From an uncultured Bacilli bacterium (GTDB lineage: Bacteria; Bacillota_I; Bacilli_A; RF39; UBA660), in assembly GCA_947625625.1 (NCBI GenBank), contig CANQPC010000002.1, forward strand, positions 2,893 through 66,892: a DNA stretch of 64,000 nucleotides, read 5' to 3'. A program made the translations under genes and the position numbers. The notes beneath the pieces were generated by a model. The model worked only from the letters and a program-made list of their open reading frames with translations, was not told the origin of the DNA and made no database searches. Shown piece after piece: positions 42,214 through 43,973 of this stretch. How positions within the stretch are numbered: position 1 is the first letter of the stretch; each line of letters starts with the position of its first letter.

Positions 42214-42981
42214 TCACACATTCCCTTCATTAAGGCTAAAATCATATACCCTATTTCGATATAAAATCTTTATTCCCTTATATATATTATCTGATACAAC
42301 CGTCTTAATTTTACTATCTATATAATCGTAATTAATATTCTTACTAGGAACTAAAATCGTAATAGTAGGGTCATTAAGCTCGATAAGTCTATTTAAGTAA
42401 TCAATAAAGTCTTCCATATTAAAATTATTACTAGATATAAAAATCTCATATACCTTATATTCTTCTTCTGTAAAAAACTTTTTAAAGTATTCTTCTCTTT
42501 CTTCTGGTAATAATACTTCTATCTTATATACCTCTTCAGGTGTCAATTTATTTCTTAAATTAACACAGAAATCATATCTATTACTATCTTTAATACTCGA
42601 TAAAAAATCTTTAATCAAGTCTTCGTAATTAATAATAAATTTTTCTTCAATTTTTTTATTTATGGCAAAAACATTTTTATCTACATAATCAGTTTCAGTA
42701 AGTAAATCTATTATTGTACTGTCAAAATCATAACTAGGTTTAGTATCGACATCTAAATTTTCTTTTAATCCATTTTCCCTTTTCTTTAATTCACTATCGA
42801 GTTCAGAAAGTTTTTTCTCTTTCTCGTCGATTAAAGAATCATATTCTTTAAGTTTATCAACAAAATATGATTTAGATTTTTCATTAATTGTTTTAACTGT
42901 ATTTTTAAGTACTAAACTTAGTACTATTACTAGTAGAGCAATAACAATAAATGAAATTATAAATATTGGCATCTTATCCAA
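42214..42981 (-). CDS. b-subunit-like stalk protein (N-terminal TM helix, coiled coil, C-terminal globular domain)
   Basis: [25 protein letters not shown], then a charged helical region ([21 protein letters not shown]), then about 150 aa of mixed sequence. The assignment rests on architecture and position between the c-like and alpha-like genes, not on motif identity. Confidence 0.45.
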
Positions 42982-43219
42982 TTAATGGATTAAAGAATAA
43001 TAATAAGAAACAGAAAGCAAATAAAAATACTAAGAATATTGCAAATATAATTAATATTGTCATAATAGAATGGACGACGTCATTCTTCGTTTCAGGATTT
43101 CTTCCGACAGCTTCCGCTACTCTTCCTCCTAAAAGTCCAATTCCAAGACCTAATCCTAAAAAGGCAAGTCCAACCATAACTCCAATAGCAACCGCTGTTG
43201 CTGATAAAATACTTTCCAT
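42974..43219 (-). CDS. F-type c-subunit-like proteolipid lacking the helix-2 carboxylate
   Basis: The likely start is [43 protein letters not shown] after AGGAGG; the track ORF extends to 43264. It has a Gly-rich helix 1 and an R-N-P-E loop (compare ARQPE). Helix 2 ([29 protein letters not shown]) contains no Asp or Glu. Confidence 0.65.
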
Positions 43220-43235
43220 AATTTTTTTCCTCCTT

Positions 43236-43973
43236 CTATATTTTTCCAAGTTCTTTATAAACATTTATTATCATATCGTTATTAACATAATAACAAACTT
43301 TATTTATCTCCATCAGATTAAAACTTCCATATACTTTATCATCTTCGATATACATATTCATAATCTGTGGCAACTTTTCTCTAATTCTAATAATATATTT
43401 TTCTTTTAATTTATTAAATTCTTCTCCGGTCATTTCTTCTTCAGTTATAGCATCAGTTACTTTTTCTCTTATATCGTCTACTTTAATATAATCATCAAAT
43501 ATACTTTCCGCTATCTCCTTATAACTGACATCTATTTTTTTTAATAGTTCTTCATTACTAATTACTTTCTTTTCAAATAAATCGATATTCAAAGAAACTA
43601 CATCTTCATAATCGACAGGTTCTTCATGTATCAAATATTTAATTTTAACCGACAAAATATTATCGTATATTCCTTTAGCAATATCGACATCCATAATCTC
43701 TTTATCGGAATAGTTTTTTTGTCTTTCAAGAAAATCATTATTAATATCATCACTAATATTTTCTATGTAAACCATATCACCCTTAACTTTAACATAATAA
43801 TCAGCATTAAAATGCATTATATTATCATAACTGGGTAGAGAACCATATTTATGATAATAAGCATAAATCCAATAGAAAAACATTGAAATAACAATACTAA
43901 TTACCATTGCTAAAACTAGTAAAAATCTTCGGTTGTCATTCTTATAAATATTAACCTTTTTCTTCTTTTTCAT
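43236..43973 (-). CDS. N-terminally anchored protein, first gene of the F1-like ATPase cluster (orphan)
   Basis: [16 protein letters not shown] followed by one TM helix, then a 200-aa acidic domain. No family recognised. Confidence 0.55.

Follow-up and report, generated by a model that had tools for sequence, protein, structure and literature searches.

A stretch of 64,000 nucleotides from an uncultured Bacilli bacterium (GenBank assembly GCA_947625625.1, contig CANQPC010000002.1; in what follows, the window is this whole stretch) carries an operon that resembles the genes for an F-type ATP synthase. The genes lie on the minus strand, co-directional and tightly packed with overlapping junctions, in the order p245, c-like, b255, alpha-like, beta-like, eps84, tm171, gamma-like, and p309. 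Only the c, alpha, beta, and gamma members of the cluster are recognised by Pfam. The c-like gene encodes a small proteolipid that is publicly annotated as 'F-type H+-transporting ATPase subunit c' or 'F0F1 ATP synthase subunit C'. It is a true homologue of the ATP-synt_C family from which the mid-membrane carboxylate is missing.

The open reading frame that encloses the c-like gene extends from 42974 to 43264 on the minus strand, and the start codon used is an internal ATG at 43219. A ribosome-binding site, AGGAGG, can be read from the sequence at 43229-43234 (complement), separated from this ATG by a 9-nt spacer. Nearly all homologues begin at the equivalent Met-Glu-(Ser/Thr), and the product is thus an 81-aa protein encoded at 42974-43219. 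The first helix carries a GxGxGxG motif, the polar loop contains R40-N41-P42, and Ala60 stands at the carboxylate position. Counting 17 residues from the loop glutamate E43 leads to A60, and there is no Asp or Glu anywhere in helix 2 (V48-F76). These were the claims of the sequence-only reading of this DNA: an 81-aa product from the internal ATG, a Gly-rich first helix and polar loop typical of c subunits, an alanine 17 residues beyond the loop Glu, and a second helix devoid of acidic residues. All of them have held up against structures and orthologues.

How close is this protein to characterised c subunits? It matches Pfam ATP-synt_C (PF00137) with 33.1 bits, above the gathering score of 24, and stays below every NCBIfam c-subunit cut-off; the best of these models is PRK06876 (39.9 vs. 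71 bits), and TIGR01260 gives 18.7 bits with a cut-off of 43.95. In a phmmer search of the PDB, the protein was aligned full-length and without gaps to solved c subunits at E-values from 1e-13 to 1e-7, namely c1/c2 of Acetobacterium woodii (4bem, E 1e-13), the spinach and pea chloroplast subunits (3v3c, 4mjn), and the c subunit of Ilyobacter tartaricus (1yce). Ala60 lies opposite the ion-binding Glu in every one of five PDB alignments, none of which brings an acidic residue to the ion site. The Asp of the TKND motif (D47) had been named as a candidate for that site and can be ruled out, as it aligns with the loop-proximal Asp common to Na+ c subunits (KGD in 1yce, SND in 4bem). The published Na+-ligand positions of the I. 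tartaricus c subunit (Q32, S66, T67, and Y70) are apolar residues in the c-like protein when read off the 1yce alignment.

The c-like protein shares with the Na+-type c subunits of I. tartaricus and A. woodii (c2/c3) an ~80-aa hairpin, the GxGxGxG motif in helix 1, the R-(Q/N)-P loop, and the C-terminal NP(F/L). Like a canonical c gene, its gene sits directly before a b-like gene and alpha. By contrast with the Na+-type subunits, its family has Ala, Ser, or Thr in place of Glu, an invariant Phe/Leu helix 2, and no partner subunit a. To our knowledge, every characterised F-, V-, or A-type ring has at least one ion-binding carboxylate per subunit.

Is the absence of the carboxylate a peculiarity of a single genome? 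In 5.8 billion proteins, 938 relatives of the c-like protein were identified; of these, the best 120 clusters (68-94% identity) were inspected. A scan of 185,579 species, each represented by one genome, found 265 genomes with a relative, and 80 of these loci were fetched. Helix 2 has no acidic residue in 119 of the 120 protein clusters; in the one exception, a single sequence, a Glu occupies a position other than 60. The helix-2 carboxylate is also absent from all 80 genomic loci. Residue 60 in 72 orthologues is Ser (27), Ala (22), Thr (22), or Val (1), and never Glu or Asp. The ratio of nonsynonymous to synonymous substitution rates (dN/dS) between the orthologues and the window gene ranges from 0.02 to 0.25, with synonymous sites near saturation. 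Thus, the loss of the carboxylate is ancient, fixed, and under purifying selection, and a strain-specific lesion or a pseudogene, with orthologues that keep the Glu, is ruled out by the same data.

Several parts of the protein are invariant in the family alignment. These are the glycine zipper of helix 1 (G13, G17, G22, G26, and G28), the loop region (A35-E36 and G39-R40-N41-P42-E43-T44-K45), the residues H50, M53, and T54, and a Phe/Leu array in helix 2 (F62, L66, F67, F69, L73, L74, and F75) followed by N77-P78-L79. Helix 2 is hyperconserved and strongly unlike its canonical counterpart. The outer face of helix 2 normally looks to lipid or to subunit a; the invariance of the Phe/Leu face suggests that here it makes specific protein contacts in the membrane.

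The same conservation bears on whether the cluster might be what is left of an ATP synthase operon in decay, without function. The cluster does lack subunits a and delta, and several of the remaining subunits score below curated family cut-offs. However, the reading frames are intact and overlapping, purifying selection is strong, the catalytic motifs are preserved, and the cluster is conserved in 265 species-level genomes belonging to two classes, Bacilli and Clostridia. This explanation is effectively refuted.

A scan of 1.84 billion representative sequences (50% clustering) with a hidden Markov model (HMM) revealed further, distant carboxylate-free relatives (P0364, P0377, P0380, P0387, P0388, P0391, and P0416). 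Sequences that bear a Glu, such as P0410 and P0412, first appear at an E-value of ~1e-8 in the fetched set. The remote relatives also include fused multi-hairpin c proteins of 240-630 aa with 3-8 hairpins (P0394, P0397, P0398, P0402-P0408, and P0459), in which the Glu is kept in only some hairpins, giving rings with fewer ion sites.

The hosts of the cluster are uncultured RF39-like Bacilli (recorded as 'Firmicutes bacterium CAG:321', 'Mycoplasma sp. CAG:956', or as 'Tenericutes' metagenome-assembled genomes (MAGs)), Erysipelotrichaceae, and many Lachnospiraceae and other Clostridia, including the cultured Kineothrix alysoides KNHs209 and Candidatus Merdisoma. One locus (CAVCHK010000135.1) and several loci with Muribaculaceae titles carry a Bacilli-type cluster of low guanine-plus-cytosine (GC) content under the label of Paludibacteraceae or Muribaculaceae (Bacteroidota); these records are probably mis-binned contigs. 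In the closest relative with a complete chromosome (CP091726.1, 'Bacilli bacterium nC33_bin.244'), the cluster is split into many short open reading frames with c intact, which probably reflects indel errors in the assembly and not pseudogenisation.

Two gene orders are found in the 80 loci: c-b255-alpha-beta-eps84-tm171-gamma, as in the window, and c-b255-alpha-gamma-beta-eps84-tm171, which is canonical-like. The b255 gene is present in all 80 loci, and both eps84 and tm171 are present in all 70 loci that extend far enough; the synteny holds in every locus long enough to display it. Each cluster has one c gene, and no second c gene was found in the window or in the 80 loci. Two extra HMM matches to c genes near the cluster were spurious open reading frames.

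The number of c genes is relevant to the proposal that the c-like protein is a hybrid-ring or modulator subunit of a housekeeping F-type ATP synthase encoded elsewhere, one that would lower the number of ion sites and thereby alter the ion/ATP ratio, as in A. woodii. The best PDB match of the c-like protein is indeed A. woodii c1 (4bem chain J, E 1e-13). This subunit is reportedly a double hairpin of a hybrid F/V-like ring, and it is said to be the known example of an F-type c hairpin without a carboxylate. Multi-hairpin c proteins with carboxylate-free hairpins are also found among the remote matches described above. In the A. woodii ring, however, only one hairpin of one subunit reportedly lacks the site, while the c2/c3 remainder carries Na+; here it is the only c gene of the cluster that has no site, and the whole ring would therefore be ion-blind. 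Moreover, in the 80 loci the c-like gene is never found beside a canonical c gene or a subunit-a gene; alpha, beta, and gamma genes of its own and particular membrane partners accompany it throughout. Helix 2 of the protein is hyperconserved in a non-canonical form, and no member of the family has an ion site. A role in a hybrid ring is thus very unlikely.

The other half of the known ion path is the stator, where subunit a provides an arginine. No subunit-a gene was found in the 80 neighbourhoods, nor any recurrent polytopic gene other than tm171 (38786-39301, minus strand), which is predicted to encode a conserved membrane protein of five helices. The family alignment of tm171 contains no conserved Arg or other conserved charged residue in the membrane; in the broad family, invariance or near-invariance is limited to G40 and one Tyr. 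None of 41 members matches ATP-synt_A or ATP-synt_I at E <= 0.1. An AlphaFold2 model (predicted local distance difference test (pLDDT) 76.6) has five helices, the last two of them long, and a Foldseek search with this model gave nothing below E 0.5. Fo a-subunits appear among the weak, non-significant fold matches, and only at E >= 1.2 (6n2d_a (TMq 0.46), 8dbw_a, 6oqr_a, 6zmr_a, and 6vol_a). Given the lack of a Pfam or PDB sequence signal, the lack of a conserved Arg, and the non-significant fold matches, the assignment of tm171 as subunit a is not supported; the weak fold matches are no more than a hint that it could be a degenerate form of this subunit without the arginine. The known ion path lacks both of its halves, the carboxylate of the rotor and the arginine-bearing subunit a of the stator. 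With a ring that lacks the carboxylate, no subunit a, and no conserved stator arginine, coupling through an ion path by the known mechanism is not available to this machine.

Which proteins might take the place of the other stator and stalk subunits? Subunit delta does not recur in the cluster neighbourhoods. The b255 gene (42214-42972, minus strand; 252 aa from the ATG at 42972) encodes an N-terminal transmembrane (TM) helix, a helix of ~70 residues, a helical domain, and a conserved C-terminal domain. Its predicted topology is that of a b subunit (N-out, C-in), which makes it a candidate for the peripheral stalk. None of 49 members matches ATP-synt_B or OSCP (E <= 0.1), and an identification as subunit b or as a b-delta fusion is not supported, as there is no Pfam or PDB signal. 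The AlphaFold2 model of b255 is poor (pLDDT 56.6), and the fold search with it is therefore meaningless. The eps84 gene (39304-39558, minus strand) encodes a conserved protein of 84 aa in the epsilon position. None of its 44 members matches ATP-synt_DE_N (E <= 0.1), and in hhalign comparisons with the epsilon subunits of Bacillus PS3 (E-value 0.027, probability 1.8%) and of E. coli, epsilon homology is not demonstrable for this protein, which lacks a Pfam or PDB signal. Profile searches of PDB sequences with the tm171, b255, and eps84 families were empty.

Could ions still be coupled through a non-canonical site? Such a site might be formed by H50, S51, T54, or by Ser/Thr60 together with water, or by residues of the TM helices of tm171, b255, or p245. 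H50, S51, and T54 vary little or not at all, 49 of the 72 orthologues have Ser or Thr at position 60, and the tm171 proteins of the window lineage have K112, H118, and D119 in the penultimate helix. However, the first three of these residues are found next to the loop, in the cytoplasmic end region of helix 2, and not in the middle of the membrane. Since position 60 is Ala in the window and in 21 other orthologues, no polar group is conserved there. The charged residues of tm171 are not conserved outside the close lineage, and no rotary ATPase, whether of the F, V, or A type, is known to work without the ring carboxylate. A non-canonical ion site is highly improbable.

In contrast to the membrane sector, the head has kept its motifs. 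The F1 beta-like catalytic subunit (39551-40909, minus strand) has an intact Walker A motif, GERSREG, Walker B motif, and the DELSEED-like lever EELSEDD. It is nearer to true F1 beta than to the G1 beta of Mycoplasma mobile (385.8 vs. 293.7 bits). The alpha-like subunit (40887-42245, minus strand; ATP-synt_ab, 226.6 bits) keeps the GDKKTGKT P-loop, the SVSRLG arginine-finger motif, and the N-terminal helix, and its C-terminal domain is shortened. The gamma-like subunit (38011-38805, minus strand) matches PF00231 with 83 bits. The alpha-like protein is below every NCBIfam alpha cut-off (atpA, 362.3 vs. 484.45 bits), as are the beta-like protein for the atpD model (451.3 bits, cut-off 462.85) and the gamma-like protein for its own (52.4 vs. 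194.45); all three have strong Pfam domain-level matches despite missing these equivalog cut-offs. Judged by its motifs, the catalytic head is intact.

The cluster is often accompanied by genes for large surface proteins. As a descriptive count, 67 of the 80 loci have, no more than three genes from the cluster, a co-directional gene for a single-pass protein of 200 aa or more, and 40 of the 80 have one of 1000 aa or more. The bulk of these flanking single-pass proteins is predicted to be extracellular. A typical clostridial locus reads [560-700 aa single-TM]-c-b-alpha-gamma-beta-eps-tm171-[~240 aa single-TM]-[>1300 aa], and in several Bacilli loci the order upstream of c is [~1800 aa]-[~480 aa]-[~240 aa]. 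Pfam and NCBIfam gave only weak fn3 matches for the giant and mid-size proteins of the flanks. In two Bacilli MAGs (L080:10564-17447 and L040:10354-17215), single-TM genes of ~1790 and ~500 aa are inserted between the c-like and b-like genes, which places giant surface proteins inside the ATPase operon itself. In Lachnospiraceae loci such as L044:14904-16121 and L020:14882-16105, tm171 and the ~240-aa single-TM protein are fused into one protein of ~405 aa, which argues that the two work together physically.

What might an F1-like ATPase without an ion path do? The ion path is missing, while the head, gamma, the c-loop, the ring-packing motifs, and a b-like stalk have been kept, and this combination points to an ion-uncoupled motor. 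The cluster is best read, with a probability of roughly 60%, as an ATP-hydrolysing, non-ion-coupled rotary machine that serves the cell surface and is built on an ion-blind c-ring. The complex would consist of alpha3beta3-gamma, the epsilon-position protein, the single-TM stalk protein, and the five-helix membrane protein on the c-ring. The c-like protein would form a tightly packed ring of hairpins through its glycine zipper and would dock the gamma/epsilon stalk through the RNP loop. ATP hydrolysis would turn, or strain, gamma and the ring against the stalk-held head. The ring and its membrane partners would then relay this mechanical work through the membrane to single-pass proteins predicted to have domains outside the cell. 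The output proteins would be p245 and perhaps SipW-type secreted proteins in the window, and the ~240-aa, ~500-aa, and >1300-aa proteins in other lineages. More speculatively, the single-pass partners might occupy the ring or lie along it and convey rotation or strain to the exterior; helices of Voa1 and Ac45 sit inside the rings of V-type ATPases in published structures. Ring formation, ATP-driven rotation, and the nature of the output are in each case inferred from sequence.

The conclusion of the sequence-only reading that the membrane sector is not an ion-driven rotor is supported by the lack of a subunit a and of a conserved Arg in tm171. Its further suggestion, that the head is an ATP-hydrolysing motor for something else, fits the intact beta motifs and the surface-protein neighbours, and the step to 'something else' remains an inference.

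Several points weigh against a surface-serving rotary machine. The assignments of b255, eps84, and tm171 were made from position, size, and topology only, and the neighbour counts given above are descriptive. The flanking surface proteins vary by lineage, and the version of the cluster in the window is without the giant and ~500-aa proteins. In position and topology, the p245 protein is analogous to the ~240-aa single-TM protein of other loci; its membership in that family is not supported by the alignment, which covers the TM helix only (probability 44%). The ring may also be a mere anchor of the head that does not rotate.

A related alternative is that the cluster encodes an ATPase for protein export or assembly with a static ring, where the head would act in the manner of FliI6-FliJ, and the ring and tm171 would form a platform or portal for giant, TasA-like, or SipW-type proteins. 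F1 alpha and beta are homologous to FliI/SctN, families that are found among the weaker NCBIfam matches, and the neighbours of the cluster are secreted or surface proteins, with genes for SipW-like peptidases adjacent in some loci. However, the neighbours have ordinary N-terminal TM or signal sequences, which suggests that they are exported by Sec. Furthermore, alpha and beta are distinct and F1-like, with far higher scores for F1 than for FliI models, the docking residues of gamma and the c-loop that are typical of a rotor are conserved, and no homologues of an export gate were seen among the cluster neighbours. Such an export role is unlikely.

Going beyond the rotary machine itself, a more tentative proposal, possible at best, is that the F1-like head, powered by ATP alone, spins the carboxylate-free c-ring, which works as a transmembrane drive shaft. 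Single-pass proteins held inside or beside the ring would bring the rotation or torque to large proteins outside the cell or to fibres processed by SipW, with adhesion, the handling of fibres, or motility as the purpose. If this were true, the cluster would be a free-living relative, and possibly an evolutionary intermediate, of the gliding and MIB-MIP motors of mycoplasmas. It would then represent a class of rotary machine that has not been described before and is found widely in gut Bacillota, and the first rotary ATPase in which the membrane rotor is coupled mechanically and not by ions.

Are there known systems of this kind? The Type 2 (gliding) and Type 3 (MIB-MIP) F1-like X0 ATPases of mycoplasmas are proposed to put ATP hydrolysis by an F1-like head to use at the cell surface (PMC3369863, PMC12994834, PMC11864180). 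Their seven-gene cluster has no c; among its products are a protein with 12 TM helices, a small cytoplasmic one, and a large one that has a signal peptide and two TM helices at the C-terminus (PMC12994834). Similar to these systems, the cluster described here combines divergent alpha, beta, and gamma, and an epsilon-position protein, with uncharacterised membrane proteins and a surface protein, and lacks subunits a and delta. The hosts of both are low-GC Bacillota, Mollicutes for the F1-like X0 ATPases and RF39-like Bacilli and Erysipelotrichaceae for this cluster. By contrast, this cluster has a c-like gene, five-helix and single-TM proteins, and a different gene order, and its alpha-like protein retains the N-terminal helix that is absent in the mycoplasma proteins. 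The window proteins score below the cut-offs of the mycoplasma Type 3 (MSC_0618/0619) and Type 2 (MMOB1660/1670) models (301.1/520, 415.8/570, 364/600, and 369.3/850).

The N-ATPase (the alternate F1Fo, AtpDCQRBEFAG) is likewise a divergent F-type operon. It occurs as a second operon beside the housekeeping ATPases, and it has retained both subunit a and, in its c subunit, the complete Na+ site. The window proteins are far below the N-ATPase models TIGR03322, TIGR03324, and TIGR03305 (c 15.8/130.85, alpha 341.8/750.5, beta 402.7/752). Thus, the closest systems in function are the mycoplasma Type 2 and Type 3 F1-like X0 ATPases, and the closest in sequence are the Na+-type c subunits and A. woodii c1. 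The best reading is that the cluster is a relative of the mycoplasma F1-like X0 ATPases in which the c-ring has been retained. According to Beven 2012, these mycoplasma clusters had no known equivalent outside mycoplasmas, and no paper that describes the present cluster was found in literature searches.

An ion-blind ring under strong selection in hundreds of species would show that an Fo-type rotor can be reused as a purely mechanical element, a result of interest to biologists who work on rotary motors and on gut microbes. On the best reading given above, the cluster would also provide the first relatives outside mycoplasmas of the F1-like X0 motors, which drive gliding and antibody evasion. 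Because these relatives keep a recognisable c-ring and one carrier, Kineothrix alysoides, is in culture, the question of how force is transmitted becomes experimentally approachable. Metabolic reconstructions of RF39-like and Lachnospiraceae MAGs that count the cluster as an ATP synthase are probably wrong.

The window operon probably starts at a promoter-like site before p245. By consensus matches only, a terminator-like hairpin (44067-44046) that ends the gene upstream of the operon is followed by TTGACT-17-TATACT with TG (44025-43997, minus strand), the best promoter-like site on this strand. The first gene, p245 (43236-43973, minus strand), encodes a protein with a basic N-terminus and one TM helix, a predicted topology that would place its C-terminal domain outside the cell. 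The last gene, p309 (37140-38069, minus strand; the likely true start is the ATG at 38018), encodes an acidic coiled-coil cytoplasmic protein. It is lineage-restricted, with matches in 21 loci after iteration.

Directly downstream of the operon and co-directional with it are four tandem paralogous genes for secreted proteins with a signal peptide of the SipW-dependent type (…IIGATFAYFSA…; 33981-37069, minus strand). The window contains six such SipW-type paralogues of ~210-250 aa (signal peptide …VIGVATLVVAIIGATFAYFSA…; TIGR04088), and the remaining two are located beside hisS (8933-10230, minus strand). The mature domains have no match to a Pfam family, and a phmmer search with the SipW-like protein of locus L053 did not find a SipW peptidase in the window. 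The protein family itself was found in 20 loci, and genes for a SipW-like peptidase and Flp-like pilins lie near the cluster in some other loci. The SipW-type secreted proteins may serve the machine as substrates or partners.

The gene immediately upstream of the operon (44087-45265, minus strand) encodes a protein of 392 aa that combines a signal peptide with a Gly/Asn repeat of collagen-like type (GNTGNNGNTGNN…) and, towards the C-terminus, a pair of TM helices. Related loci such as L002 and L005 have, at the same place, a gene for a 134-aa protein related to this C-terminal part. At the downstream edge of the SipW-type array (32867-33799, minus strand), there is a gene for an Rpn-family PD-(D/E)XK recombination-promoting nuclease/putative transposase.

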